From Candidatus Jorgensenbacteria bacterium GW2011_GWA1_48_11 (GTDB lineage: Bacteria > Patescibacteriota > Minisyncoccia > UBA6257 > GWB1-50-10): a stretch of 64,000 nucleotides of DNA. Every line of letters starts with the position of its first letter. Within the stretch, counting starts at the first letter, position 1. This document shows positions 9,826 through 41,364 of the stretch, in pieces. The stretch spans positions 101,910-165,909 of the forward strand of contig LCPF01000001.1 in assembly GCA_001003475.1 (NCBI GenBank), in the 5' to 3' direction. The notes beneath the pieces are model-generated. The model was not told the DNA's origin. It made no database searches and was given only the letters and a program-made list of their open reading frames with translations. The translations under genes and the position numbers were made by a program.

Positions 9826-10329
9826 TTAATTACTATTATTGTTATTTGTTTCGGTTTCCACTTTCTCCACCATTCCGTACAAATCGATTTTTCTTAAAAT
9901 AAAAAGCAGAAGAGCCGTACCGACGGCGGCAATGGCGGCAAAGCCCAAAAGGCCGATGCCGCAGAGGACGCCCACGGCGGCCACGAACCACACGGTCGCG
10001 GCGGTCGTAAGCCCCCGCGGCTGGATGCCTTCCTTCACGATAATGCCGGCGCCCAAGAATCCCACGCCCACAACCACGTTCGCCACGGCCCCCAAAAAAC
10101 CGCTATTCCGAGCCAAGACGTCCCGGAGATGTTCGGCGTCCAAACTCACGATATACGGCAGCATTAATCCGACGATGGAAAATATCGCCGCGCCGGCCGC
10201 CACCATCATGTCAGTCCTCACGCCCGCTCTTTTCCCCACCAACTCCCGTTCCAGGCCGATTACGGCGCCCAAAACTATGGCTACGGCCAAACGCAAAAGC
10301 ATTGTTTCCAAACTCAAGGGTTGAATCAT
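9826..10329 (-). CDS. MgtC/SapB-family membrane protein.
   Basis: 167 aa with 4-5 TM helices and the family-typical GLERE motif near the N-terminus. Confidence 0.6.
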   Translation of the reverse strand: MIQPLSLETMLLRLAVAIVLGAVIGLERELVGKRAGVRTDMMVAAGAAIFSIVGLMLPYIVSLDAEHLRDVLARNSGFLGAVANVVVGVGFLGAGIIVKEGIQPRGLTTAATVWFVAAVGVLCGIGLLGFAAIAAVGTALLLFILRKIDLYGMVEKVETETNNNNSN

Positions 10330-10351
10330 GTCTTTATTTTATCACAAGACG

Positions 10352-21806: not shown

Positions 21807-23354
21807 ATGAAGCGGACTTTCGTGCTCGTGATCCTGGACGGCTGGGGCCTTGGCCCCCAAAACGAATCCAATCCGATCTATAAGGTAAACCCCCAAGCGA
21901 TTCAATTCGTTCAGAATAATTTTCCAGCCGGCGCTCTTCAGGCGTCGGGCATTGCAGTGGGCCTTCCCTGGGAAGAGGAGGGTAATAGCGAAGTTGGCCA
22001 CCTCACCTTGGGCGCCGGCAAGGTTCTCTACCAATATTTCCCCCGCATCACGATGGCGATCGACGACGAAAGTTTTTTTAAAAATCCGGCCCTGCTTAAA
22101 GCTTTCGAAAAAGCCAAGACCAGTCAATCCGCCGTTCATTTGATCGGCATTTTAACCGACGGCAACGTCCATGCTTCCCTCAAGCACCTTTCCGCCCTGA
22201 TCGAAATGGCCAAACGGGAGAATTGCCAAAAATTATACCTCCAGCTCTTTGCTGACGGCAAAGACAGCTCGCCCCGCTCGGCCCTGAGCCTTATTCAAAA
22301 ACTGAACGCCGAGATCCAAAAGAAGGGCGTGGGCGTCCTCGCAAGCTTCACGGGCCGCTATTATGGCATGGATCGCGACAATCACTGGGACCGAACCGAA
22401 ACCGCCTACCGGGCTCTATTGGGTGAAGCGCCGGACAAAAGCTCGGCCGAAGAAGCCCTCAAAAAAGTCTTTGATCGGAATTTAAGCGAGGAATTCACGG
22501 CGCCGACGATTGTCGCTTCTCACCCGATCCAAGACAATGATTCCTTGATTTTTTTCAATTTCCGGGAAGATAGCATCCGTCAAATCGCCGAACCGTTCAT
22601 TCTGCCCGGCTTTAAAAAATTTCCAATCGTTCTCCCAAAAAATCTCTTCGTCGCGACCATGACCGAATATCGCGAGGATTTCAAAGTGCCGATCGCTTTC
22701 CCCCGGGAGACTATCGAAAAACCTTTGGGTTGGGCCTTGGCCGAAAATCAGAAAACCCAGCTTCGCATTGCCGAGACCGATAAATACGCCCACGTCACTT
22801 ATTTCTTTAACGGCTTGAGGGAAACGCCCTTCCCGAACGAATACCGAATTCTAATCCCCTCAAAAAGTACCATCCACCTGGATGATTATCCGGAAATGAT
22901 GGCCTCGGCCATTACCGACCGGATTTTGGTCGCCTTAAACGACGGCGGATTTGATTTTATTTTGGCGAACTACGCCAACCCCGACCTCGTTGCCCATACC
23001 GGCAATTTCGAAGCGACAGCGAAAGCAGTGAGGGCGGTGGACCGGGAAATAGAAAGGCTTGTTAAAAACGTTCTCGCGCAGAATCACGTAGCAATAATCA
23101 CCTCCGATCACGGCAATGCCGAGGAACTGATCGACCTCAAGACCGGCGAACCGGAAACAAAACACGACACGAACCCCATCCCGTTCTACCTGGTAGCCAA
23201 AGAATTCCAAAAAACCAATCCAATCGAAAGCAGTACCGGACGCTTACCGGTGATCGGCATGCTATCGGACGTAGCCCCGACCATTTTATCTCTGATGAGA
23301 CTGCCGATTCCGAAAGAAATGACCGGCCAAAACCTGCTTGACCAGCTGATTTAA
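21807..23354 (+). CDS. gpmI: 2,3-bisphosphoglycerate-independent phosphoglycerate mutase.
   Basis: 515 aa with N-terminus VLVILDGWG and the metalloenzyme/alkaline-phosphatase-like motifs ITSDHGN... Confidence 0.9.
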   Translation: MKRTFVLVILDGWGLGPQNESNPIYKVNPQAIQFVQNNFPAGALQASGIAVGLPWEEEGNSEVGHLTLGAGKVLYQYFPRITMAIDDESFFKNPALLKAFEKAKTSQSAVHLIGILTDGNVHASLKHLSALIEMAKRENCQKLYLQLFADGKDSSPRSALSLIQKLNAEIQKKGVGVLASFTGRYYGMDRDNHWDRTETAYRALLGEAPDKSSAEEALKKVFDRNLSEEFTAPTIVASHPIQDNDSLIFFNFREDSIRQIAEPFILPGFKKFPIVLPKNLFVATMTEYREDFKVPIAFPRETIEKPLGWALAENQKTQLRIAETDKYAHVTYFFNGLRETPFPNEYRILIPSKSTIHLDDYPEMMASAITDRILVALNDGGFDFILANYANPDLVAHTGNFEATAKAVRAVDREIERLVKNVLAQNHVAIITSDHGNAEELIDLKTGEPETKHDTNPIPFYLVAKEFQKTNPIESSTGRLPVIGMLSDVAPTILSLMRLPIPKEMTGQNLLDQLI

Positions 23355-28960: not shown

Positions 28961-28992
28961 GCCCCGCACCAACGCGAAGCTTTGGTGCGGGG
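28961..28992 (+). terminator. Strong G/C hairpin (10-bp stem ccccgcacca/tggtgcgggg) after rnj, flanked by 25-nt direct repeats.
   Basis: gccccgcaccaacgcgaagctttggtgcgggg. There is no clean U-tract, so terminator function is uncertain. Confidence 0.4.
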
Positions 28993-29074
28993 TGATTCTG
29001 CCGGTCATAATCGAAATATGAGCAAACAATCCCGCACTAACGGGTTTTTGTTTCTAAGAAGTCGTATTATACTG

Positions 29075-30148
29075 GAAGATATGAAACCAATTCTCGTTTC
29101 CGGCATCCAACCGACAGGCAAGCTCCATCTGGGCAATTATTTGGGCGCCTTGAAGAATTTTGTCGCTCTCCAAGATTCCGGAAAATACAGCTGCTTTTTT
29201 TTCATCGCCGACCTTCACGCTTTGACTGAGAATCCCGATCCAAAAAAATTAAATGAGGGTGTTTTGAATTTAACAATTGATTTTTTGACGGCTGGCATCA
29301 ATCCCAAAAAATCCATTATTTTTCTACAATCGGAAATACCAGCCCATTCAGAATTAACCTGGATTTTAAATACAATAACACCCCTCGGAGAACTAAAAAG
29401 AATGATTCAATTTAAATTTAAGGCGAGGGCTATTTGGGAATATCTAGACAAAAAACATCAAGACGAAAAAAACTACACCGGTCAAGTAAGCGATGAATTT
29501 GCTAATAAATTAGTTGAGGAAAATATAGAAGCCAACGCTAACGCTGGTCTCGTCGATTATCCCATTCTTATGGCTTCTGATATTTTGCTTTACAGCACCA
29601 AATTCGTACCCGTGGGCGAAGACCAGGACCAACATCTAGAACTGACCAGAACCCTGGCCCGCAAATTCAACAATAAATTCGGTAGAACTTTCATTGAACC
29701 ACAGGGGCTGCACACCAAAGTGCCTCGCTTGATGAGTTTGGATGATGCCACGAAAAAAATGTCCAAATCCCGGCCAGCCGGCTGTCTTTTTTTGGATGAT
29801 TCGCCTGAAATAGTCCGTAAAAAAATAAAGCGCGCCCAAACAGACTCGGGCCGGGAAATTAAATACGACCCAAAAAACAAAGCTGCCGTGAGCAACCTTA
29901 TCTCAATTTACGCCGGCTTGACCGAAAAACCAATTGGCGAAATTGAGCGTAAATTCAAAAACTCCAATTATGCCGGCTTCAAGAAAGATTTGGCCGAAGT
30001 CATTGTCAAAGCCCTAAAACCTTTCCGGGAAAACAAATTAAGCAAAAACGCGGCTGAAAAAATCCTACGCGCCGGCACCAAAAAGGCGAATGTTGTTGCC
30101 GCAGAAAAACTTCTGGAAATCAAAAAGAAAATCGGCTTAATTTTTTAG
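29075..30148 (+). CDS. trpS: Tryptophan--tRNA ligase.
   Basis: Class I aaRS with QPTGKLHLGNYLGAL (HIGH-type) and KMSKS. The track ORF begins at 28982 inside the upstream hairpin/repeat, so the start is placed at MKPILVSG (29075), preceded by a TATACT -10 and a GGAAG RBS. Confidence 0.85.
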   Translation, partial: EDMKPILVSGIQPTGKLHLGNYLGALKNFVALQDSGKYSCFFFIADLHALTENPDPKKLNEGVLNLTIDFLTAGINPKKSIIFLQSEIPAHSELTWILNTITPLGELKRMIQFKFKARAIWEYLDKKHQDEKNYTGQVSDEFANKLVEENIEANANAGLVDYPILMASDILLYSTKFVPVGEDQDQHLELTRTLARKFNNKFGRTFIEPQGLHTKVPRLMSLDDATKKMSKSRPAGCLFLDDSPEIVRKKIKRAQTDSGREIKYDPKNKAAVSNLISIYAGLTEKPIGEIERKFKNSNYAGFKKDLAEVIVKALKPFRENKLSKNAAEKILRAGTKKANVVAAEKLLEIKKKIGLIF

Positions 30149-30336
30149 AATCTGCAAAAATAAGCGCTCTGCGGCCGCATAGTGCTATGCTATAACATAG
30201 CATCTATTTTTTACTGTTTTCTTTATTGTCTTGTTATTCTGTGATGGGATTCCGCTATGACATGTTATAGCGCCCCAATTTATTCTTATAAGAAGAAAGG
30301 GCGCCATGAATTTCCATGACGCCGCGACCTAATGCA

Positions 30337-30360
30337 AAAGGCCCGCGCATGGCGCGGGCC
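30337..30360 (-). terminator. Intrinsic terminator of the GC-rich island operon (9-bp G/C stem followed by UUUUG on the minus strand).
   Basis: Minus strand reads GGGCCCGCGCCAUGCGCGGGCCUUUUGCAUU. Confidence 0.6.
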
Positions 30361-30384
30361 CGAACCAAAAACGGTTCCATACTG

Positions 30385-30522
30385 CTACTTCTGCCGGCGG
30401 CGGCCGTGACCGCGACTGTCGTCGGAGAGCTTCTCGCCCCTCATCCGCGCCCGAATCTCCTGGTCACGCAGGCGCTTGTCGCGCTTGCGGTCGGGCGCCG
30501 GCTTCGACGGCATCGGATTCAT
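30385..30522 (-). CDS. Small basic protein (45 aa) in the GC-rich island, in the same frame as the upstream ORF across a TGA.
   Basis: MNPMPSKPAPDRKRDKRLRDQEIRARMRGEKLSDDSRGHGRRRQK; GC3 about 88%. Not in the track (<60 aa). Confidence 0.35.
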   Translation of the reverse strand: MNPMPSKPAPDRKRDKRLRDQEIRARMRGEKLSDDSRGHGRRRQK

Positions 30523-30555
30523 GGCGCGGCTGATGCGACGCTCCACGCTTGCCAG

Positions 30556-30735
30556 TCAGTCCAACCGGGCCTGGAAGCAACCGACCTCACGCCGAGCGCA
30601 ACGGATATCGTTCACCGCGATGAGCTTCTGCTCGTCCGTCTTGGCCGTAGCCAGACGCTCACGGCCGATCTTCACCCGCGACTGCCAGAGCTTGAGGCTC
30701 GCCTCGAGCTCCGCCCGATTCAGCTGCTCGGCCAT
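30556..30735 (-). CDS. Small protein (59 aa) in the GC-rich island, hypothetical.
   Basis: MAEQLNRAELEASLKLWQSRVKIGRERLATAKTDEQKLIAVNDIRCARREVGCFQARLD. AGGAGG lies 5 nt upstream of the ATG and GC3 is about 90%. Not in the track (<60 aa). Confidence 0.45.
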   Translation of the reverse strand: MAEQLNRAELEASLKLWQSRVKIGRERLATAKTDEQKLIAVNDIRCARREVGCFQARLD

Positions 30736-30867
30736 ACCGCCTCCTGTCAGAAGTTATCCTGTTTGACGTTAAAGAACCATTGGGTTTCCCCGCCTAAATT
30801 TTCAAAATATTTCAAAAACTTAGGTGGGTGGGCGACCGAAGTCGCCCATGTGCTGCAAAGACAATGC

Positions 30868-31245
30868 CTAGCGATGAAACAACTCCTTGATGAGATCCGG
30901 CCACCGCGGATCACTCATGCGGTAGATCACGATCACGGGTGGGTTGTATGCCGGACACAGTTCACCGTGAGTATCAACCGTCAAGGGCCGAAACATGCCG
31001 AAAACGCAGACGTCTCCCTCTCCCGGGCGAGGGTTAAAGGTGACGACGAACAGTTTGCCGTCACTGTACCGCACCAGATCTCCTGGCGCGAGCGTGGACA
31101 GCGACTCGGCCATCGCCTGACGTTGCGCCATCTGTTCGGGCGTGAACTTCGCCTTCCCAAGAAGCATCACCGTCAGACCAATGATGGCAGCTAGCAACGA
31201 CAGGGGGACAGCGCCGTGAAAAAACACCCTCGGTCCGCTCATCAT
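30868..31245 (-). CDS. Membrane-anchored protein (N-terminal TM plus about 90-aa soluble domain) in the GC-rich island, hypothetical.
   Basis: 125 aa with GGAGGA directly upstream and GC3 about 70%. The opposite-strand 292-aa ORF (30316..31194) is judged an antisense shadow. Confidence 0.5.
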   Translation of the reverse strand: MMSGPRVFFHGAVPLSLLAAIIGLTVMLLGKAKFTPEQMAQRQAMAESLSTLAPGDLVRYSDGKLFVVTFNPRPGEGDVCVFGMFRPLTVDTHGELCPAYNPPVIVIYRMSDPRWPDLIKELFHR

Positions 31246-31406
31246 TCCTCCGCATCTTACCTAATTAAGGGGTTGATTATCTTTGCGAATTGGGCGTTTC
31301 CCAATTCATCGTGCTAATCATATTATAGCATAGAATATACCATCCTGTCAATAGGAAAAAGCCCTATTTTATAAGACTTTCTAAGCCTTCCTTTATTTTC
31401 ATCTCT

Positions 31407-34400
31407 CTACTGCGGTTTTCTAAGGCCCAGCCAAAGCGGCCAATTATCCAACTTTGTTTCCAGTTCAATGTGGAATTTCGGCGACTTCCTATACTCCACG
31501 GCTTTGGCGCCGACTTCTTTCTTGATTAAAGTTTCGTTTTTCTCCATTAAATAAACCAATTCTTTGGCCGGACTCTCAAAAATCAGAATTAGTTTATCCT
31601 TCGGTTCGAATTTCCCGTCCTGCCGCATCTGCTGGATTATTCTCACCAGGTCCCTTAGCCAGCCTTCTTCCCTAAGCTCGTGGGTAATCTCCGTATTCAG
31701 CCAAACTTCTTCTTTCAATTTCGGCTCGTGCAAAACTCGCTTCACGTTTATCTCTTCTTTCAAAACTTCCAAAAGATCGCCGCTTCCTTTCAGGACGTTT
31801 CCTTTGATCTTTATTTCCGAAAGCGGCTGACGGACTTTAATGCCGGCCTCCGCCCGCTTGGCCAAGGCGGCCGTGGCGATTTTTCGCACCTCGGCCATAT
31901 CCGCCAGTAATTTTGAATTTTGAATTTTTCCGCCCGAGGCGAATCCGCCTTTAGCGGAGAATTTTGAATTACCCTTGGACCAGTTCTCTAAATGGACCGA
32001 AAGCTTATTGTCGGTATGGAATGATTTATACAGGGCTTCGGCGAAAAACGGCGTGAAAGGCGCAATAAGCTTGCTCGTCTCCAAAAGGACGTATCCCAAG
32101 ACAGCCGAAGCGACTGCGTAATCCCTCTGGCTTTCCGGCTTCCCGCCTGCGCGGGCGGGCTGGAATCGGCGGCGCGAACGCCGGATATACCAGCGCGACA
32201 GGTCGCCCACGAATTCTTCTATTTCCCTGGCCGCCACATTCGCTTCGTATTTATCCAGTTTTTTAGTGACGCTTAGAATAATTTCATTCAGCCGAGCCAA
32301 GATCCATTTGTCCAGAACATTCATTGATTTTGGGTTCGGCAACTTGAGTTTCGAGCTCTTATCAGCGTAAGTTTTCCAAAAAACGAAGGAGTTGTACAAA
32401 AGTGCGATGAACTGGCTGCTCGCCTTCCCCAGATCGGCCTCATTGAAACGCTTGGGCTCGCCTGGCGGATTGACCGTGTAAAAATACCAGCGCACGGCAT
32501 CAGCGCCGTATTTATTGATCATCACCCACGGATCGACGACGTTGCCCTTCGACTTGGACATTTTCTGACCGTTCTTATCGAGGATGTGCCCCAAACAAAT
32601 GACGTTTTCGTACGGCGCGCCTTTGCCGAGCAATGTCGCCACGGCCAAAAGCGTGTAAAACCAACCCCGGGTCTGATCAACGGCCTCGGAAATGTAATTG
32701 GCCGGAAATTCCAGCTTGCTCTTGCCGTCAAAAGGATAATGGACCTGGGCAAAGGGCATGGCGCCGGAATCGAACCAAACATCAACCACTTCCTTTACCC
32801 GCTGCATTTCGCCGCCGCATTTATCGCAATCAAATACAAATCCGTCGATATAAGGCCGGTGCAGGTCCATCGAGCCGTTCTCGTCGCGAGGCAAGCTTCG
32901 AAAAACTACCGCTTCGCTACCGCCGGTTTCCACAAAATCGTCGCCTCTCTTTTCTTTCTCGCTGATTGCCTCACCGTCACTCCAGCCGTTCATCACCGTC
33001 GCCATCATCCAAATCGGATACTCGTGGCTAACGACGACGATCGTTTTCCCATCGTGCTTCTTTTCCATCGTTTCCAAAAATTCGTAAACCCGGCGTTTCA
33101 AATCGGTCAAATTCTCCCCTCCGGCCGGCCGCTTCATGAAAGCTTCCCAATAAGACGGATAAAATTTGTCGTATTCGCTCATCGGACGACCGTTCAACTC
33201 CCCCACGTTTATCTCGCGCAAACGCTCGTCAAAAAACAGCTTGGCGCCCGGGATTTTCGCCTTAATCGCTTCCGCTGTTTCTTTTGTACGGGTAATATCC
33301 GAAGCGTAGATAAAACCAACTCTTTTACCGGCCAATTTTTTGGCGAGTTTTTCCGCCTCAACCTTTCCCGCGAAAGTAAGATGGTTTGGAAACGGTTCTG
33401 GATAAGAACTGTCAATTTCCCTTATGTTGCTTTCGGCCTGGCCGTGACGGACTAAAATGTAATGATTTCTGCTTTTCTCCGCGGCTTTTTCCAAATCTTG
33501 GACGCCCCCGATCGCGCGACGGACGCCGCACTTATCGCAGGCCCAGATTGGCAGCGGCGTGCCCCAATACCGCTCGCGGGAAAAATTCCAGTCGTTGACA
33601 TCGCGAAGCCATTCGCCGAACCGGCCGTTCTTCACGTTCGCCGGCACCCAATTGATCTTGCTGTTATTAGTTAAAAGCTTTTTTTTCAATTTGCTCATTG
33701 CCACAAACCAGGAATCGCGGGCATAGTACAAGAGCGGCGTATCGCAGCGCCAGCAAAAAGGATAGTCGTGCTTATATAACTCGGTTTTTAATAAAAGGTT
33801 TTTGCTTCGCAGATATTTGATTGTTTTTTCTTCAGTCGCCTTGTCTTTTACGTACAGTCCGCCCAAACCGCCCGGCACCTCGGATTTAAACAAGCCCCGC
33901 TCATCCACCAGGTGATGCTCCGGCAGGCCGATCTTTTTGCCCAAATTGTAATCGTCCACGCCATACATCACGGCCGTATGGACCACCCCCGTTCCATCTT
34001 CGGTCGTCACGAAATCGGCCGAGTAAACCTTATAGGCTTTTTTGTCCTTCAAGGCTGGTATATTGAAAAGCGGTTCGTATTCGAGGCCGATCAAATCTCG
34101 AGCCTTAACAAACGATGCTCTTGCTTCAATTCCTTCGTTAGGGAAATTCGCATTTTCAAAAATACCAACATTTGCACCGTTTGCCCAAATTAACTTGTCG
34201 TTATTTTTTATGCGTCCTTCGGGGTCCGGTTTTTTAACGCTATATTCCTCAATAACATATGAAATGTTATCCCCCACCGCAAGCGCTACATTTCCTGGTA
34301 GAGTCCATGGCGTTGTAGTCCAAGCAACAATGAATGTTTGATTATCAGTCGTAAACTTTCCGATCTTCTGACTCGGCTTTAATCTAAATTTTACATAAAC

Positions 34401-35012
34401 CGAGTTTTCTTCGACTTCCTTGTAGCCCTGAGCCAGCTCATGCGAAGAAAGGGACGTGCCGCAACGCGGGCACCAAGGCACGACTTTATGCCCCTTATAA
34501 AGCAATTTCTTGTTCCAAACCCGCTTCACGATCCACCAAAGGGTTTCAATGTAGGAATTTTCGTAGGTGATGTAGGGGTTCTCGAGATCAAGCCAAAAAC
34601 CGATGCGCTCGGTTAATTTCTCCCACTCGTCCTTGTAAAGCCAGACGAGTTCTCGGCACTTTTTATTGAATGCGGCGACGCCGTACCGCTCGATGTCCTG
34701 TTTGGATTTAAACCCTAATTCCTTTTCCACCTGCACCTCGATCGGCAAACCGTGGGTATCCCAGCCAGCTTTCCGCTCGACAAAAAAACCGGTCATTGTC
34801 TTGTAGCGGGGAATAAGATCTTTGAAGGCCCGCGCCAGAACGTGATGAATCCCCGGCTTGGCATTGGCGCTGGGCGGCCCTTCATAAAAAATGAATTTTT
34901 TCTTCTTTTTGCCGACGACCAGGGACTTTTCGAAAATCTTATTTTTTTTCCAAAAATCCAGGACTTTTTCTTCGATTTCCGGCAATTTGAATTCTTTTAA
35001 TCCGTGAAGCAT
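31407..35012 (-). CDS. ileS: Isoleucine--tRNA ligase with an inserted histidine-phosphatase (PGAM-like) domain.
   Basis: HIGH region PPSANAKPGIHHVLA, KMSKSKGNVVDP, editing/CP1 region, Zn-binding Cys181/184 and Cys420/423. The 1201-aa length is explained by a roughly 230-aa insert (aa 497-728) carrying LVRHGQAESN and VVSHEYPI. Confidence 0.9.
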   Translation of the reverse strand: MLHGLKEFKLPEIEEKVLDFWKKNKIFEKSLVVGKKKKKFIFYEGPPSANAKPGIHHVLARAFKDLIPRYKTMTGFFVERKAGWDTHGLPIEVQVEKELGFKSKQDIERYGVAAFNKKCRELVWLYKDEWEKLTERIGFWLDLENPYITYENSYIETLWWIVKRVWNKKLLYKGHKVVPWCPRCGTSLSSHELAQGYKEVEENSVYVKFRLKPSQKIGKFTTDNQTFIVAWTTTPWTLPGNVALAVGDNISYVIEEYSVKKPDPEGRIKNNDKLIWANGANVGIFENANFPNEGIEARASFVKARDLIGLEYEPLFNIPALKDKKAYKVYSADFVTTEDGTGVVHTAVMYGVDDYNLGKKIGLPEHHLVDERGLFKSEVPGGLGGLYVKDKATEEKTIKYLRSKNLLLKTELYKHDYPFCWRCDTPLLYYARDSWFVAMSKLKKKLLTNNSKINWVPANVKNGRFGEWLRDVNDWNFSRERYWGTPLPIWACDKCGVRRAIGGVQDLEKAAEKSRNHYILVRHGQAESNIREIDSSYPEPFPNHLTFAGKVEAEKLAKKLAGKRVGFIYASDITRTKETAEAIKAKIPGAKLFFDERLREINVGELNGRPMSEYDKFYPSYWEAFMKRPAGGENLTDLKRRVYEFLETMEKKHDGKTIVVVSHEYPIWMMATVMNGWSDGEAISEKEKRGDDFVETGGSEAVVFRSLPRDENGSMDLHRPYIDGFVFDCDKCGGEMQRVKEVVDVWFDSGAMPFAQVHYPFDGKSKLEFPANYISEAVDQTRGWFYTLLAVATLLGKGAPYENVICLGHILDKNGQKMSKSKGNVVDPWVMINKYGADAVRWYFYTVNPPGEPKRFNEADLGKASSQFIALLYNSFVFWKTYADKSSKLKLPNPKSMNVLDKWILARLNEIILSVTKKLDKYEANVAAREIEEFVGDLSRWYIRRSRRRFQPARAGGKPESQRDYAVASAVLGYVLLETSKLIAPFTPFFAEALYKSFHTDNKLSVHLENWSKGNSKFSAKGGFASGGKIQNSKLLADMAEVRKIATAALAKRAEAGIKVRQPLSEIKIKGNVLKGSGDLLEVLKEEINVKRVLHEPKLKEEVWLNTEITHELREEGWLRDLVRIIQQMRQDGKFEPKDKLILIFESPAKELVYLMEKNETLIKKEVGAKAVEYRKSPKFHIELETKLDNWPLWLGLRKPQ

Positions 35013-35048: not shown

Positions 35049-36635
35049 CTACATCTTGCTAGGTTTGGTGAGGCCAAGAATGTCCAAAAGGTTTTCGAAA
35101 ACCACGAGCGCGCCGTGAACCAAGCTCAAACGGGCGTCAGCCAAAATTCCGTTGCTTTCGCCAATCACCCGTTCTTTCTCGTAGAAATTATGGAAGGTTT
35201 TGGCGAGTTCGATCGCATAACGCGTCAAGCGATGAACCCGATAATCTTCGGCGGAATCGGAAACGAACTCCGGAAATCTCGCCAGCTGTTTCAAAAGAGC
35301 AATGTCCTGAGGCGTCTTCAAGCTCGCCAAATTCTTGTGGGTCGGCTTGAATTTGGCCTTTTTAGCGATGTTTCTGGCCCGAACATAGGCATATTGGGTG
35401 TAATAAACCGGGTTTTTATTGGACCGCTCCTTGGCCAAGCCCAAATCGAAATCCATGTGGCTTTCCGGCGCGTGCATTAAGAAAAAGAACCGAGCCGCAT
35501 CAGCGCCAACCTCACTCACTAATTCCTCGAAAGTCACGAAAGCGCCTTTGCGTTTGGACATCTTCACTTCCCGGCCCCCCTCCACCAAACGCAAGGCTTG
35601 AGTAATTAAAATTTCGAGGTCAAGACCGATAATACTCGCCGCCGCCTTCATTCTCGCTACATAACCATAATGATCCGGTCCCAAAATAAGGATTTTGCGG
35701 TCAATTCTCCTAGCCTTAGTCTCCAAATTGTGTCCGCTATCGGCAAGAATGTACGTGGGATCGCCGTTGCTTTTGACGATGACCCGGTCCTTATCGTCGT
35801 CGAATTTCGTTGTTTTCAGCCATAAAGCCCCTTCTTTTTCGTAAGTCAATTTTTTTCGTTTGAAAATCCTAAGCGCTTTTTCGACAAAACCCTTCTTACG
35901 AACGTCTTTCTCTTCGCTCGTATAGCGGTTAAACCTGATTCTGGCCTTCTTCTCGAGAACCAGCCTGATCGCCTTTAGAAATTCGCCGGCGGCTTTTTGG
36001 CCAACTCTGATCGGCTGACCGGCGTTTTTTTTCACGAAAACGGAGTTTTTGTTGGCCCAGGCTTCAATGTATTCACCTTTGTAAAATTGTTCTTCTTTGG
36101 GAATCAGCTTCAGGGCGGCGACCATGGATTTACCCAAAGTCAAAACCTGATTGCCGGTATCGTTCACGTAGTACTCCCGCTCCACCTTGTGTCCCGCCGC
36201 CGACAAAACATTTCCGAGAATGTCGCCCAAAAAACCGCCCCGGCCGTTGGCTAAGGTAAGGGGACCGGTAGGGTTGGCCGAAACGAATTCCAATTGGATT
36301 TTCTTTTTTGACGCCGCTTTAACGCGGCCATAATTCTTTTTGCCCCTAAGAATCTCTTTCAAGCTCTCATGCCAGGCTTCGGGCGCAATCCAAAAATTTA
36401 TAAAACCGGGGCCGGCCACTTCTATTTTCTGGAAAAGGTTTTTGGGGGCGGCTTTCTTAATGGCGGCCGCGATCGTGAGCGCTTCTTGGTAGGGTGTGCC
36501 GCCTCTTTTTTGGGCCAGCCGAAAAGCGACATTCGTCGAATAATGCCCCTGTTTTTCCTCGTCGGGAGAAGTTATTTCTATTTTTACGTTTTCCCTAACG
36601 GCTTGTCTTAAGAATTTCAACACTTTTTCTCTCAT
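35049..36635 (-). CDS. argS: Arginine--tRNA ligase.
   Basis: Contains SANPTGPLTLANGRG (HIGH-equivalent) and KMSKRKG. Start trimmed to MREKVLKFLRQAV (36635), because the track start 36713 would overlap divergent smpB. Confidence 0.85.
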   Translation of the reverse strand: MREKVLKFLRQAVRENVKIEITSPDEEKQGHYSTNVAFRLAQKRGGTPYQEALTIAAAIKKAAPKNLFQKIEVAGPGFINFWIAPEAWHESLKEILRGKKNYGRVKAASKKKIQLEFVSANPTGPLTLANGRGGFLGDILGNVLSAAGHKVEREYYVNDTGNQVLTLGKSMVAALKLIPKEEQFYKGEYIEAWANKNSVFVKKNAGQPIRVGQKAAGEFLKAIRLVLEKKARIRFNRYTSEEKDVRKKGFVEKALRIFKRKKLTYEKEGALWLKTTKFDDDKDRVIVKSNGDPTYILADSGHNLETKARRIDRKILILGPDHYGYVARMKAAASIIGLDLEILITQALRLVEGGREVKMSKRKGAFVTFEELVSEVGADAARFFFLMHAPESHMDFDLGLAKERSNKNPVYYTQYAYVRARNIAKKAKFKPTHKNLASLKTPQDIALLKQLARFPEFVSDSAEDYRVHRLTRYAIELAKTFHNFYEKERVIGESNGILADARLSLVHGALVVFENLLDILGLTKPSKM

Positions 36636-36690
36636 TGGAGTTAATTTTACCCTGTTAGGAACAATATTTCTAACGCGGTAAAATAAGGTC

Positions 36691-37128
36691 ATGCCCGAAT
36701 TGGCTATAAACAAACGCGCTTTTTTCGACTACGAAATTCTCGAGAAATTCCCGGCCGGCCTCGCCTTGACCGGCCACGAAACCAAATCCATCAAAATGGG
36801 CCGGGCCAACATCGCGGGCGCCCATGCCGTTAGCCGAAACAACGAGATTTTCCTCCTAGGAATGGACATATCTTCTTTTCAGCCGAAAAATGCGCCGCCG
36901 GACCACGAACCGCAAAGGACAAGAAAACTGCTTTTAAAAAAGGAAGAGATCAAATATTTAACGGGAAAAATCCAGTCCGGATTGACACTCCTTCCGATAA
37001 AACTCTATACTGACCGCGGGTTGGTGAAAATAGAATTGGGCTTGGGCCGCGGCCGGAAAAAACAGGACAAGCGCGAGGTATTGAAAAAACGCGAAACCCA
37101 GAAAGAGATTAGAAAATTCAAAATTTAA
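36691..37128 (+). CDS. smpB: SsrA-binding protein SmpB.
   Basis: 145 aa: FDYEILEKFPAGLALTGHETKSIK...LLLKKEEIKYL; sits immediately before tmRNA. Confidence 0.9.
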   Translation: MPELAINKRAFFDYEILEKFPAGLALTGHETKSIKMGRANIAGAHAVSRNNEIFLLGMDISSFQPKNAPPDHEPQRTRKLLLKKEEIKYLTGKIQSGLTLLPIKLYTDRGLVKIELGLGRGRKKQDKREVLKKRETQKEIRKFKI

Positions 37129-37131
37129 TAC

Positions 37132-37490
37132 GGGGATGATGGGCTTTGACAAAATCCCATCCGATAAATTGCAGGCCGAGCCGATCGTCTCGTCCCTAAG
37201 CCGACTAACGTCGGCCGGGACCCCGGCGCATAGCGCTTAGGGGTAAATCCGGTCAAAAACTTTCAACTGCCAACAGCAATGTTGCAGCGCCGGCTTTCGC
37301 TTTAGCTTAAGCCGACCATCGGACCACGATGCCTAATAGTGGGCCTCCGGTGTCATAATTAGGCCCGCCGCAACCAATGGTTCTAAATTGCGGCCAGATT
37401 CAGAACCAAAAACTGCCGCCTCAAGCGGATAAGCTTGTAGATTGTTTGTCGGATAAATTTTGGACGCGAGTTCGACTCTCGCCATCTCCA
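37132..37490 (+). ncRNA. ssrA: tmRNA (SsrA), one-piece; CCA not encoded.
   Basis: 5' GGGGAUGAUGGGCUUUGAC...UGCAGGCCGAG (conserved P2). Tag ORF GCC AAC AGC AAU GUU GCA GCG CCG GCU UUC GCU UUA GCU UAA gives ANSNVAAPAFALA*. 3' end is GGACGCGAGUUCGACUCUCGCCAUCUCCA (T-arm plus acceptor pairing with 5' GGGGAUG). Confidence 0.9.
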
Positions 37491-37690
37491 CTAGATAAAC
37501 TGTCGCTCGGAATTCTATATTGCAACGGACTTTTTTGAAGTCGGCCTTAAAAAGTTATCCCCAGTCGGCACTTTTGACTCCGGTCAAAACCAATTTAGAA
37601 TTAAATCAGATCGTCGTCAGATTAATACTCGCACCAACAGGGCTAACCCTGTCAAAAGAACATGTAGGTGTTCAAGATATGTGAAAGCAC

Positions 37691-38942: not shown

Positions 38943-39238
38943 AATCGCCAGCCGAATTTCTCCAAATCGATTTTCCCTTTCACGATTGTCACGCCTTCTT
39001 TTTTAAGAAGGTGGTTTTTTTGGCGCTCGCCCGAAGCGTAACCGCCGATTCCTCCCCCGCCTTGAACCACCCGGTGGCAAGGCACCTGGGGCGCCCGGTG
39101 ATTTTTATTCAGGGCGTTGCCAACGGCCCGCGAAGCCTTGGGCCGACCGAGCGCTCGGGCTACCGCCTTGTAAGTCGCAACTTTACCTTTTGGGATTTTT
39201 CTGATCGCCAGATAAACTTTTTCCTCGAATGAGGTCAT
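38939..39238 (-). CDS. Methylated-DNA--protein-cysteine methyltransferase, DNA-binding/active-site domain only (minimal MGMT/Ogt-like).
   Basis: 99 aa with active-site motif VPCHRVV and HTH IPKGKVATYKAVARALG. Confidence 0.75.
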   Translation of the reverse strand: MTSFEEKVYLAIRKIPKGKVATYKAVARALGRPKASRAVGNALNKNHRAPQVPCHRVVQGGGGIGGYASGERQKNHLLKKEGVTIVKGKIDLEKFGWRF

Positions 39239-39638
39239 AGGCTTTTTTTAAATTGTTTTTGAGATTTTGGTACATGAGCATCCGGACGGCATCCTTATAC
39301 AGAAACCAGCCGTAACCATTGTGCTCTTCGGAAAGCCGAACTTGGCCCTGCCGCGTTTCGGCCAGGAAATAAATCACGATTTTGAAGACTTTCTGCTTTT
39401 CGCGGCTGAAAACAAACCGGTCGTAAACCTTGAAACGGGGGTCGAATTTGAGTTCGTTCCGGCCCAAACCGGTCTCCTCCTTGATTTCCCGGACAGCCGC
39501 ATCGTAAGACCCTTCCCTCGCTTCAATCTTACCCTTGGCGAAATTCCAATAGCGGCCGCCGTGGTACAAAAGCAAAAATTTGGGACCCTCTTTGGTCCGT
39601 CGATAAATAACGATGCCAGCCGCTGTTTCTTTGGTCAT
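39183..39638 (-). CDS. NUDIX hydrolase.
   Basis: Nudix box GKIEAREGSYDAAVREIKEETGL. Its 3' end overlaps the start of the MGMT-like gene by 56 nt in another frame. Confidence 0.8.
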   Translation of the reverse strand: MTKETAAGIVIYRRTKEGPKFLLLYHGGRYWNFAKGKIEAREGSYDAAVREIKEETGLGRNELKFDPRFKVYDRFVFSREKQKVFKIVIYFLAETRQGQVRLSEEHNGYGWFLYKDAVRMLMYQNLKNNLKKAYDLIRGKSLSGDQKNPKR

Positions 39639-39639
39639 G

Positions 39640-41364
39640 CTACTTAAGCAATTTTAGCATTTTCTCGACCGGCCAGATATTAATGATGTCCGTTGGTTTG
39701 GCCCAGCCGCGGCGGGCTTGAGCCAAGCCGTACTCAAGGTAAGCGAAGTGGGGGGCGGCATGGGCATCGGAATCAATGCTCATCTTTACGCCGGAGGCCA
39801 CGCACTTCCTGATATATTCGTCCTTAAGATCGAGCCGGTCTGGATAAGCATCGATCTCGAGGATTGTCCCGGTCATTTTGGCGGTTTTCACGATCTCATC
39901 AATATCCAAATCGTAAGCCTCGCGACGGTTGATGACCCGGCCGGTCGGGTGGAATAAGATGTCGACGTTTTTATTCTGCATCGCTCTTTGGATACGCCCG
40001 GTTTGTTCTTTGCGGCTCAAATTGAAATAAGAATGGACCGAAACGCCGACCACGTCGAGCCGGGCCAAAGTTTCGTCTTTCAGATCTAAAGCGCCGTCTT
40101 TTAAAATATCGCATTCGGTCCCCTTCAATATCCTAATTTTTTGGTTTCGGGTTCTGAATTTTGAGTTTAATTTGTCGATTTCGACCCCCTGCTCTTTGAT
40201 CTTTTTATCGTCCAAACCATGGGTCATGGCCAATCTTTTGGTGTGGTCTGTTATCAAAATGTATTCCAAGCCCGCGTTCATGGCCGCTTCGGCCATTTTT
40301 TCGATCGAATCGCGGCCGTCAGTCCAATTAGTCTGGACTTGGAGATCGCCTTTTAGATCACCGTAGCGTATTAATTCCGGCAAATCGCCTTTCTTCGCCA
40401 ATGCAATCTCGCCCAAATCTTCACGCATCTCGGGCTCGATATAACCTAAACCAAGCGCTTTATAGATTTCTTCTTCGGTTTTGCCGGCGATCTGACGCCT
40501 GCCCTTGAAAAGGCCGTACTCATTCAACTTATAGCCTTTTTTGATTGCGATTTCCCGAAGAGCAATGTTGTGGCTCTTCGAACCCGTAAAATAGTTCAAA
40601 GCCGCGCCGTAAGAGGCTTCGGGTACGATCCGTAAATCAACATCCAAACCCGATTTCAGCTTGACCGATGATTTTGTTTCGCCTTTGGCGAAAACCCCCG
40701 CCACCTCGGGCATATTCACAAAATAATCCATGATCGGCCTGGGCCTTTCGGAGACGGCAAGAATATCGATGTCGCCAACCGTTTCCTTGCGCCGCCGGAT
40801 CGAACCGGCGACGACTATTTTTTTGGTCTCTTTGAGCTTCCTTAAGCGACCCTCGATGTCCCGGATAAAAGACATGGTAAAACCGAGAACGAAACGGCCC
40901 TGGTTATTTTTCGTAAATTCGATGCCGCGCAGGATGTTTTCCTCCGATTTCCCGCCAAAACCCTCAAGTTTTCTGATCTTGCCGGCTTTAGCCGCCTTTT
41001 CCAAGTCGGGGAGGTTTCTTATTTTCAGTTTTTGATAAAGCTTGAAAATGCTTTTGGGGCCAAGGCCCTCAATGGCCTTGAAAGAATCCAGATCGATCGG
41101 TGTTTTCTTCTTGAGTTCGCTGTAATATTTGACCCGGCCGGTTTTCACCATTTCTTCGATCTTCTCCGCGATTGAAACGCCCACGCCCGGCAATTCTTCA
41201 AGGGCCTTAAGGCCGCCTTTTTTGTAAATTTCGGCCGCTTCCTCTTCTAGATTCTCGATCACCTCCGCGGCTTTCCGATAGGCCTGGGGCTTGAAAGGCA
41301 CGTTCGCTATCTCCAAATAGCCGGCGATGCCGCTTAGGACAGACGAAATATCTTTATTATTCAT
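39640..41364 (-). CDS. DNA polymerase X family protein (Pol-beta-like nucleotidyltransferase plus C-terminal PHP phosphoesterase domain).
   Basis: HhH motifs LPGVGVSIAEKI, Pol-beta-like GSIRRRKETVGDIDILA, and PHP-domain HTxxSDG-like motifs TNWTDGRDS / ITDHT / SVHSYF. Confidence 0.85.
   Translation of the reverse strand: MNNKDISSVLSGIAGYLEIANVPFKPQAYRKAAEVIENLEEEAAEIYKKGGLKALEELPGVGVSIAEKIEEMVKTGRVKYYSELKKKTPIDLDSFKAIEGLGPKSIFKLYQKLKIRNLPDLEKAAKAGKIRKLEGFGGKSEENILRGIEFTKNNQGRFVLGFTMSFIRDIEGRLRKLKETKKIVVAGSIRRRKETVGDIDILAVSERPRPIMDYFVNMPEVAGVFAKGETKSSVKLKSGLDVDLRIVPEASYGAALNYFTGSKSHNIALREIAIKKGYKLNEYGLFKGRRQIAGKTEEEIYKALGLGYIEPEMREDLGEIALAKKGDLPELIRYGDLKGDLQVQTNWTDGRDSIEKMAEAAMNAGLEYILITDHTKRLAMTHGLDDKKIKEQGVEIDKLNSKFRTRNQKIRILKGTECDILKDGALDLKDETLARLDVVGVSVHSYFNLSRKEQTGRIQRAMQNKNVDILFHPTGRVINRREAYDLDIDEIVKTAKMTGTILEIDAYPDRLDLKDEYIRKCVASGVKMSIDSDAHAAPHFAYLEYGLAQARRGWAKPTDIINIWPVEKMLKLLK

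Follow-up and report, generated by a model that had tools for sequence, protein, structure and literature searches.

Few enzymes are as conserved as the aminoacyl-tRNA synthetases, and those of bacteria seldom gain new catalytic domains. The closest described relatives of the protein treated here are the type-2 isoleucyl-tRNA synthetases (IleRS) of Thermus thermophilus (1ILE) and P. megaterium (PmIleRS2, 8C8U-8C9D), which are built of a HUP core, a CP1 editing domain, two CxxC zinc sites, the KMSKS loop and a DUF5915 C-terminal region. Chen et al. 2024 list a connective-peptide (CP) core, CP1, CP2 and CP3, and in Brkic et al. 2023 (PMC10485003) the region of the second zinc knuckle is termed CP2 and the second half of the catalytic HUP core begins at PmIleRS2 residue 513. 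We analysed 64,000 nucleotides of Candidatus Jorgensenbacteria bacterium GW2011_GWA1_48_11 (contig LCPF01000001.1, positions 101,910 to 165,909; hereafter the window), in which the product of the ileS gene shares all of these parts and has the same two enzymes as its nearest proteins in PDB. In addition, it contains a complete and apparently active branch-1 histidine phosphatase, with its catalytic set intact, inside the second zinc knuckle. The features of the gene are as follows, with conservation given for 121 aligned insert-bearing sequences of the clade and residues numbered in amino acids (aa).

31407..35012, minus strand: ileS, type-2 isoleucyl-tRNA synthetase with a nested histidine-phosphatase (His_Phos) domain, 1201 aa; a single uninterrupted open reading frame (ORF), identified by TIGR00392, matches in PDB and an AlphaFold2 (AF2) model.
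34842..34853, minus strand: GIHH (aa 54-57), the GXHH form of the class I HIGH motif; GXHH in 117/121.
33528..33539, minus strand: C492-D-K-C495, first half of the second zinc knuckle, aligned to T. thermophilus C461/C464; cysteines 98-100% conserved.
32898..33470, minus strand: inserted histidine-phosphatase domain, aa ~515-705 (~191 aa), with boundaries set by alignment to T. thermophilus IleRS.
33441..33449, minus strand: R522-H523-G524, the RHG motif with the nucleophilic histidine; R and H 100%, G 97% conserved.
33288..33290, minus strand: R575, second phosphate-binding arginine (TRTKETA motif); 100% conserved.
33213..33215, minus strand: E600, general acid/base, aligned (1EBB/1H2E) to the glutamate of the PhoE motif ERLREI (E83 in our own numbering); 98% conserved.
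33024..33026, minus strand: H663, second catalytic histidine (SHEYPIW); 100% conserved.
32817..32828, minus strand: C729-D-K-C732, second half of the second zinc knuckle, aligned to T. thermophilus C502/C504; cysteines 100% conserved.
32550..32564, minus strand: KMSKS loop motif (aa 817-821); kept in 120/121.

An earlier note on this DNA had read the 1201 aa ORF as an IleRS containing a complete histidine-phosphatase domain, and both halves of that description hold. The ORF matches TIGR00392, the NCBIfam equivalog for ileS, with 843 bits against a cut-off of 621.4, in two stretches that lie on either side of the insert. Pfam finds Anticodon_1, DUF5915 and tRNA-synt_1, the last in two halves with His_Phos_1 (PF00300) between them, at aa 519-678 (E 1.6e-32, 113.2 bits against a gathering score of 21.7). 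When the insert is searched by itself, the same family is recovered more strongly (E 7.5e-34, 117.5 bits). The protein scores far below the models for MupA and MupB (NF000257 and NF000258, 730 and 801 bits against a cut-off of 1900) and for the GNAT-containing IleRS (NF040702, 312 bits against 1999).

The synthetase motifs had likewise been described as intact, which stands for KMSKS, for the editing motifs (WTTTPWT and GTGVVH, conserved in the clade) and for the Cys181/184/420/423 site, present in the window IleRS; the canonical HIGH motif is the part that does not stand, being replaced by GIHH. The retention of KMSKS, the editing motifs and GXHH across the clade argues that these proteins are working synthetases; both zinc sites are conserved across it as well. 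Brkic et al. 2023 (PMC10485003) showed for IleRS2 that GXHH confers hyper-resistance to mupirocin, and given its near-universal occurrence here, the whole clade is predicted to be mupirocin hyper-resistant.

The full-length AF2 model of the IleRS has a predicted local distance difference test score (pLDDT) of 86.4 and a predicted template-modelling score (pTM) of 0.78, with values of 90-97 pLDDT in the insert and 87-93 at both junctions, which suggests an insert that is rigidly integrated, without a floppy linker. GC content shows no discontinuity at the junctions; GC and third-position GC (GC3) are 0.483 and 0.55 in the insert and 0.47 and 0.569 in the N-terminal core. The insert is an outlier in codon-usage distance when compared with the rest of the gene (0.489 vs 0.390 +/- 0.037), a measure that is confounded by amino-acid composition and by a reference that includes its own chunks.

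The insert contains the motifs LVRHGQAESN, ASDITRTKETAEAI and VVVSHEYPIW. Modelled alone, it reaches a mean pLDDT of 86.3 and a pTM of 0.83, and a Foldseek search with it returned 270 PDB matches at E<=1e-3, all of the matches listed being of the histidine-phosphatase family. The best were PspA (4IJ5/4IJ6, E 2e-13), PhoE (1H2E), mycobacterial hydrolases, Rv2419c, CobC and the riboflavin-pathway HFP. Further down the ranking came the longer mutases, and a PDB sequence search was concordant. The curated subfamily models gave scores well under their cut-offs: 83-87 bits against 225 (NF038349) and 17.6 against 81.7 (TIGR01258) for dPGM, 75-80 against 350 for the PspA-type phosphoserine phosphatase (NF045917), 75-78 against 162.9 for the CobC alpha-ribazole phosphatase (TIGR03162), and 21 against 74.5 for SixA (TIGR00249), where members of the clade give 21-35 bits.

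Beyond the residues listed above, E633 (100%), R641 (99%) and N529 (88%) are also strongly conserved in the 121 sequences, and R522, H523, R575, E600 and H663 are invariant even in an alignment that mixes embedded, stand-alone and fused forms. N529 belongs to the catalytic set. Over the same 121 sequences, identity to the query is 44% in the insert and 66% in the IleRS core. Near-invariant catalytic residues in a domain with so low an overall identity are a pattern of conservation that indicates selection on catalysis.

The position of the insert was fixed by aligning the protein with T. thermophilus IleRS using phmmer, in which residues 7-513 correspond to T. thermophilus 7-482 and residues 715-1018 to 488-793. 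In this alignment WACDKCG is paired with vC461qaC464g and DCDKCGG with aC502aC504gg, four cysteines that we take to be the second zinc site of that enzyme, and the window sequence "SLPRDENGSMDLHRPYID" matches "KPLPEPFDPHRPYVD". The insert separates the positions that correspond to K482 and P483 of T. thermophilus, with no native residue deleted, and on either side of it aa 497-514 and aa 706-728 match native IleRS sequence. The interval of aa 497-728 (32829-33524) given in the earlier note is thus correct as the stretch between the two CxxCG motifs and too wide as the extent of the foreign segment, which is limited to about aa 515-705.

Insert-less IleRS of other Patescibacteria have the same two knuckle halves, 34-37 aa apart, joined by a loop of ~35 residues. 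Among the loci compared with the window (L001-L019), the insert-less knuckle reads WECEKCDARKVISSIGELTKLSGKTLEDVHKPYIDDATFACECGG in L002 and WKCDKCNTQEVFASADELEKMSGQKVTDLHKDVVDEVVFSCKCGG in L001; those of L004 and L015 resemble these two, and the ileS of L018 has a mere 38-aa gap at the knuckle. In the aligned insert-bearing sequences the four knuckle cysteines are conserved at the levels listed above, and the residues between and after them are variable.

The two 16-nt motifs that the earlier note saw at the borders of the insert, different at 1 of 16 nt, are indeed present, at 33524-33539 and 32813-32828 on the minus strand, and no such pair is expected in shuffled sequences. Their interpretation as a duplicated insertion boundary has to be given up. 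The two CDKCG motifs are the native halves of the zinc knuckle, alike by chance and not a target-site duplication, because insert-less relatives have both halves, because identical pairs are not in excess (the same pentapeptide occupies both halves in 3 of 109 homologues, where 1.96 would be expected for independent halves), and because the nucleotide likeness of the two motifs in this genome ends at 16 nt.

The insertion site lies in the tip of the native second-knuckle loop. Since the second half of the HUP core starts at PmIleRS2 residue 513, which is the "VIDVWFDSG" segment of the alignment, the knuckle is the last element of the connective-peptide (CP2/CP3) region, and the catalytic core resumes ~10 residues after it. 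We also considered whether the site might be that of the leucine-specific domain of LeuRS, which we take to lie directly before KMSKS; this was rejected, as the insert sits two beta-strands upstream of KMSKS. The zinc-knuckle loop emerges as a natural permissive site for inserted domains in IleRS.

The architecture is widespread. All 120 of the best homologues of the protein (54-63% identity, 1140-1373 aa) carry PF00300, which makes at least 120 clusters at 90% identity with this architecture. The assemblies behind them are from NCBI, JGI, ENA and Logan, with contigs as long as 775 kb, which bears out the view of the earlier note that the ORF is not an assembly join. The named sources are Patescibacteria, Parcubacteria, Jorgensenbacteria, Wolfebacteria, Liptonbacteria, Paceibacterota and Minisyncoccia, a breadth that rests on the source names of the matching contigs and is no census of genomes.

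An exhaustive HMMER search with the insert against 1.84 billion cluster representatives was classified for the best 150. These comprised 81 IleRS-embedded representatives (54 of them with both flanks), hence at least 81 embedded clusters at 50% identity, about 50 stand-alone proteins of 177-213 aa, and a few other architectures. Projection of alignment coordinates places the domain at this one site in 78 of the 81, and the 3 exceptions are one longer linker and multi-copy forms. These sequences show that carrying the insert is the norm for IleRS in a large clade of Parcubacteria type, many of whose proteins are named by NCBI simply as "class I tRNA ligase family protein". The insertion at this site is old, and as part of the explanation that we think best, it is probably a nested fusion that has been inherited vertically.

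In the window, ileS is preceded by the gene for arginyl-tRNA synthetase, and synteny with L001-L019 places a stand-alone phosphatase gene of sister lineages in the gap between the two. The arrangements are:

35049..36713 of the window, minus strand: argS, arginyl-tRNA synthetase; an ORF 36 bp upstream of ileS.
Window, L009, L011 and L012 (embedded): smpB, argS, ileS with His_Phos inside, trpS; argS abuts ileS.
L008 (embedded): arranged as in the window; the contig ends upstream.
L018 (stand-alone): argS, 2 bp, His_Phos (194 aa), 4 bp, insert-less ileS.
L001 (stand-alone): pyrH, argS, NUDIX, a 205-aa ORF, His_Phos, 18 bp, ileS (968 aa, no insert), recO.
L002 and L004 (stand-alone): argS, an ORF of 47-49 aa, His_Phos, an interval, ileS without a His_Phos insert, recO.
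L019 (stand-alone): the end of argS, then His_Phos.
L013 and L014, 8001-10070 (P0212): ArgRS with a C-terminal His_Phos domain, in the context smpB, argS::His_Phos, recO.
L015 and L016, 8001-9179 (P0272; a second such protein is P0240): TsaC (threonylcarbamoyl-AMP synthase) fused to His_Phos.
P0213, P0252 and P0253: IleRS with two tandem His_Phos copies at the same site.
P0198: IleRS with four matched His_Phos stretches.

None of the five embedded loci has a stand-alone copy within 10 kb. In the five independent stand-alone loci (L001, L002, L004, L018 and L019), the phosphatase gene adjoins argS, and the ileS downstream of it lacks the insert in all four loci where the contig extends far enough. 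Embedded and stand-alone states are thus complementary at one syntenic position, in 5 loci against 5. The stand-alone phosphatase of L001 is 46% identical to the insert, and its operon is headed by pyrH, the gene for UMP kinase, and also includes the NUDIX gene. The start of the TsaC::His_Phos gene overlaps the stop of an insert-less ileS, and genes for a CCA-adding enzyme and TGT lie alongside. Multiplication of the domain has occurred within IleRS, and the two copies of P0252 have a duplicated piece of the C-terminal junction between them; stand-alone tandem His_Phos pairs exist as well. Altogether, this phosphatase clade is repeatedly linked, by adjacency or by fusion, to IleRS, ArgRS and TsaC. 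The small ORFs between argS and His_Phos in L002 (7770-7913) and L004 (7841-7990), of 47-49 aa, are 36% identical to each other and match no family.

L002 also encodes, at 10066-13515, a Moranbacteria-like IleRS of 1149 aa (P0303) that has a NUDIX domain inserted in its CP1 region; a NUDIX gene and a His_Phos gene, both stand-alone, precede it closely. Between the embedded domain and the NUDIX of the L001 operon, identity is 29%. Because none of the 119 closest relatives of P0303 carries it, this insertion is recent and sporadic.

The explanation that we favour, and consider probable on balance, is that an ancient nested-domain fusion has made IleRS a bifunctional synthetase and phosphatase, belonging to a phosphatase clade tied to adenylate-forming tRNA enzymes. 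Residue conservation shows both active sites to be under purifying selection. The chemistry common to IleRS, ArgRS and TsaC is the reaction of ATP and a carboxylate to acyl-AMP and pyrophosphate (PPi), and all three are tied to tRNA function. The domain would be an active phosphohydrolase that works by the usual mechanism of its family: His523 would attack a terminal phosphate and so become phosphorylated, and the phospho-histidine intermediate would then be hydrolysed by water, with E600 serving as acid/base. Fusion would guarantee 1:1 co-expression and co-localisation with the adenylate-forming tRNA enzymes.

As to the substrate, we tentatively suggest a nucleotide-derived phosphate generated around reactions that turn ATP into AMP and PPi, such as PPi itself, a nucleoside mono- or diphosphate, or the product of the neighbouring NUDIX enzyme. 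The earlier note had speculated on aminoacyl-adenylate, Ap4A-type by-products, phosphorylated tRNA or antibiotic-like inhibitors; the operon and fusion arrangements, which were not available to it, lend plausibility to some link with aminoacylation chemistry without singling out a substrate. Direct action on Ile-AMP is unlikely, since the histidine-phosphatase family attacks terminal phosphates and not acyl-phosphate diesters. We also considered the role of a glycolytic mutase, dPGM, and rejected it, as the equivalog scores are far under their cut-offs and an iPGM is encoded nearby (21807-23351 in the window, and also in L011 and L012), so that a dPGM would be unnecessary.

Several observations weigh against the bifunctional explanation or restrict it. 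No embedded, stand-alone or fused member of the clade scores above the NCBIfam cut-off of dPGM, PspA, CobC, GpmB or SixA, so the substrate cannot be read from family membership. The attachment differs, being internal in IleRS and C-terminal in ArgRS and TsaC, and given this geometry and the existence of stand-alone forms, direct channelling of a substrate is not required. A more distant stand-alone relative, P0139 (30% identity), stands in an unrelated gene context, and the synthetase association therefore belongs to this clade and not to the histidine-phosphatase superfamily. A neighbour-joining tree of 140 domain sequences has scattered outgroups and 19 state changes, and separates neither one fusion event from several nor fusion from fission. 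The link could also amount to mere co-expression within a conserved translation cluster (smpB, infC, rplT, argS, ileS, recO). Finally, branch-1 histidine phosphatases are, to our knowledge, not established pyrophosphatases. A search for a family-I pyrophosphatase, using an E. coli Ppa query, found no match in the 64 kb and the compared loci, which make up a small fraction of the genomes.

Of the other accounts, the one that survives best, possible although we think it clearly less probable than the bifunctional explanation, is that the domain is a hitch-hiking housekeeping phosphatase, acting on phosphoserine, sugar phosphates or, like PhoE, on a broad range, without mechanistic tie to aminoacylation. 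It would have been fused from the argS-ileS operon in a genome-reducing lineage, with co-expression as the gain. The nearest structures are the phosphoserine phosphatase PspA and the broad-specificity PhoE; the stand-alone forms function without IleRS, the geometry of attachment varies by partner, and the sporadic capture of a NUDIX domain by one IleRS shows that the gene tolerates accidental insertions. Against this, there are four separate arrangements that connect the clade with adenylate-forming enzymes of tRNA metabolism: a gene upstream of ileS, a domain within ileS, a fusion to ArgRS, and a fusion to a TsaC whose gene overlaps ileS. Moreover, an insertion in the catalytic-domain region of an essential enzyme has been retained with invariant catalytic residues over a deep radiation and multiplied to 2-4 copies, and the equivalog cut-offs of PspA, CobC and dPGM are not reached.

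A more specific account, which we regard as rather doubtful, would make the phosphatase a dedicated partner of IleRS, ArgRS and TsaC in Patescibacteria, built into IleRS so that it destroys a product or by-product of the ATP-to-AMP reaction at its source, for instance as a pyrophosphatase that pulls aminoacylation forward in these minimal cells, or that restores a phosphorylated tRNA 3' end for charging. If true, branch-1 histidine phosphatases would gain a substrate class not seen before, and an activity coupled to a synthetase would be new as well.

The tRNA 3' end also figures in an account of its own, an improbable one, by which the enzyme would make the CCA end fit for charging, as a built-in repair or anti-toxin activity, by stripping off a phosphate at the 3' or 2' position or, if a NUDIX partner takes part, a pyrophosphate. 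The HD domain of bacterial CCA-adding enzymes, which has phosphatase activity, offers an analogue. Both synthetases, IleRS and ArgRS, have the tRNA 3' end as a ligand, genes for a CCA-adding enzyme and TGT lie at the locus of the TsaC fusion, and NUDIX genes accompany the stand-alone phosphatase, one NUDIX domain being found in CP1 of an IleRS, the region that handles the 3' end. The domains are basic as well, with a median isoelectric point of ~9, but this is equally high in stand-alone forms (9.7, against 9.1 for embedded ones) and typical of these proteomes. Moreover, TsaC does not bind tRNA, the C-terminus of ArgRS is its anticodon-binding end, far from the CCA end, and we know of no branch-1 histidine phosphatase that acts on RNA ends. 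The PADLOC defence library gave no match for the phosphatase.

Less probable still is a protein phosphohistidine phosphatase, similar to SixA or to the RHG domain of MutT1, that would act on nucleoside-diphosphate kinase (NDK) or a signalling kinase, for example, and so couple translation to the nucleotide pool. Small branch-1 members do act on phospho-histidine proteins: SixA is reported to act on Ndk (PMC12934123) and MutT1 on sensor kinases (PMC12407098). The RHG domain of MutT1, however, is dispensable for NDK dephosphorylation (PMC11784022). The clade does give weak SixA matches, and a pairing of NUDIX and RHG is known from MutT1, but the 21-35 bits for SixA are far from the cut-off of 74.5 and no target protein is evident in the neighbourhood.

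That the module is catalytically dead, with a structural or regulatory role in adding a tRNA- or partner-binding surface, is very unlikely. Accessory domains of synthetases are often non-catalytic, and the residue after the second histidine is glutamate instead of the usual glycine in 74% of members, but the catalytic residues of the family are conserved at 98-100% in a domain that has otherwise drifted to 44% identity.

A recent acquisition with a duplicated target site, or a chimeric assembly, would account for the two flanking 16-nt motifs and their single difference, and has next to no probability, as these motifs encode native CxxC halves also found in insert-less IleRS, identical pairs are not in excess and similarity stops at 16 nt, GC and GC3 of the insert equal those of the rest of the gene, and the same architecture recurs in more than 100 independent assemblies, some of its contigs being longer than 700 kb.

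Outside ileS and argS, the following features were noted in the window:

28982-30148, plus strand: ORF for TrpRS; the listed TTG start lies ~34 residues before the likely start (MKPILVSG...).
36691-37128: smpB.
37132-37493, plus strand: tmRNA (Rfam, 101.6 bits), with the tag peptide ANSNVAAPAFALA, directly downstream of smpB.
39183-41364, minus strand: a PolX-family polymerase (HHH_8, DNA_pol_B_thumb and a weak PHP match), then a NUDIX gene of 151 aa.

TrpRS matches its Pfam model in two separate stretches and may thus contain an insertion that the model lacks. Between ileS and trpS, a 1.2 kb stretch (30200-31250) has a GC content of 0.55-0.66 against ~0.45 around it and contains ORFs of 292 aa (plus strand) and 125 aa (minus strand, with an N-terminal hydrophobic segment), with no match in Pfam or Rfam. 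At the same position L011 has nothing and L012 has an unannotated gene of 207 aa; the stretch may have been horizontally acquired. The PolX-NUDIX pair is kept in L009, L011 and L018, and the NUDIX protein of the window weakly matches the mycobacterial MutT1 model.

No description of a histidine phosphatase embedded in IleRS was found in the literature searched, which left most subscription-journal papers outside; two recent papers on the evolution and structure of IleRS contain no mention of a phosphatase or of Patescibacteria, and nothing relevant appeared on insertions in Patescibacteria synthetases or on Nudix domains in IleRS. In this respect the earlier note, which knew of no described case, still stands; the architecture is not peculiar to this genome, being standard in a large clade. 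Public for years, these sequences already come with precomputed Pfam matches. What they encode is a synthetase with an accessory catalytic domain that is robustly real, widespread and functionally unexplained: in a whole radiation of bacteria that are ultra-small and depend on hosts, an essential synthetase retains an apparently active phosphatase in its catalytic-domain region. This is a "Rosetta-stone" pattern that points to an unrecognised phosphate-handling step tied to tRNA charging or to adenylate chemistry in organisms with a minimal and little-understood metabolism, and the annotation of "class I tRNA ligase family protein" entries could become more specific.

Among the known systems, mycobacterial MutT1, with an N-terminal NUDIX and a C-terminal RHG domain, is a precedent for the pairing of a NUDIX hydrolase with a branch-1 phosphatase domain, which in the present clade are operon neighbours. 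It is reported to act on 8-oxo-(d)GTP and diadenosine polyphosphates, and the activity of its RHG domain itself is described as unknown (PMC11784022). Unlike the clade described here, MutT1 has no synthetase link, and in our sequence comparison the likeness is a weak match on the NUDIX side; for the function, MutT1 is a lead rather than an answer. The GNAT-containing IleRS of NF040702 ('ileS_w_GNAT') and the NUDIX-bearing P0303 are IleRS that host other foreign catalytic domains and are still annotated as synthetases, although the NUDIX of P0303 differs from the His_Phos insert in domain, in its CP1 site and in being a singleton among 120 relatives. With the mupirocin-hyper-resistant IleRS2 the window IleRS has the GXHH variant in common, and it differs from the solved IleRS by ~191 extra residues where these have a loop of ~35. 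PhoE (1H2E/1EBB), PspA (4IJ5), Rv2419c and CobC have the same fold as the insert (Foldseek E ~1e-13 to 1e-12, target-normalised TM-score 0.65-0.74) and, like it, the RHG/R/E/H set and a compact form that lacks the C-terminal tail of the mutases. From these four the insert is set apart by an identity of only 21-30%, by scores that reach no curated subfamily cut-off, and by features specific to its clade, namely N-x-Y before the RHG motif, P-x-W after the second histidine, and the linkage to synthetase genes.

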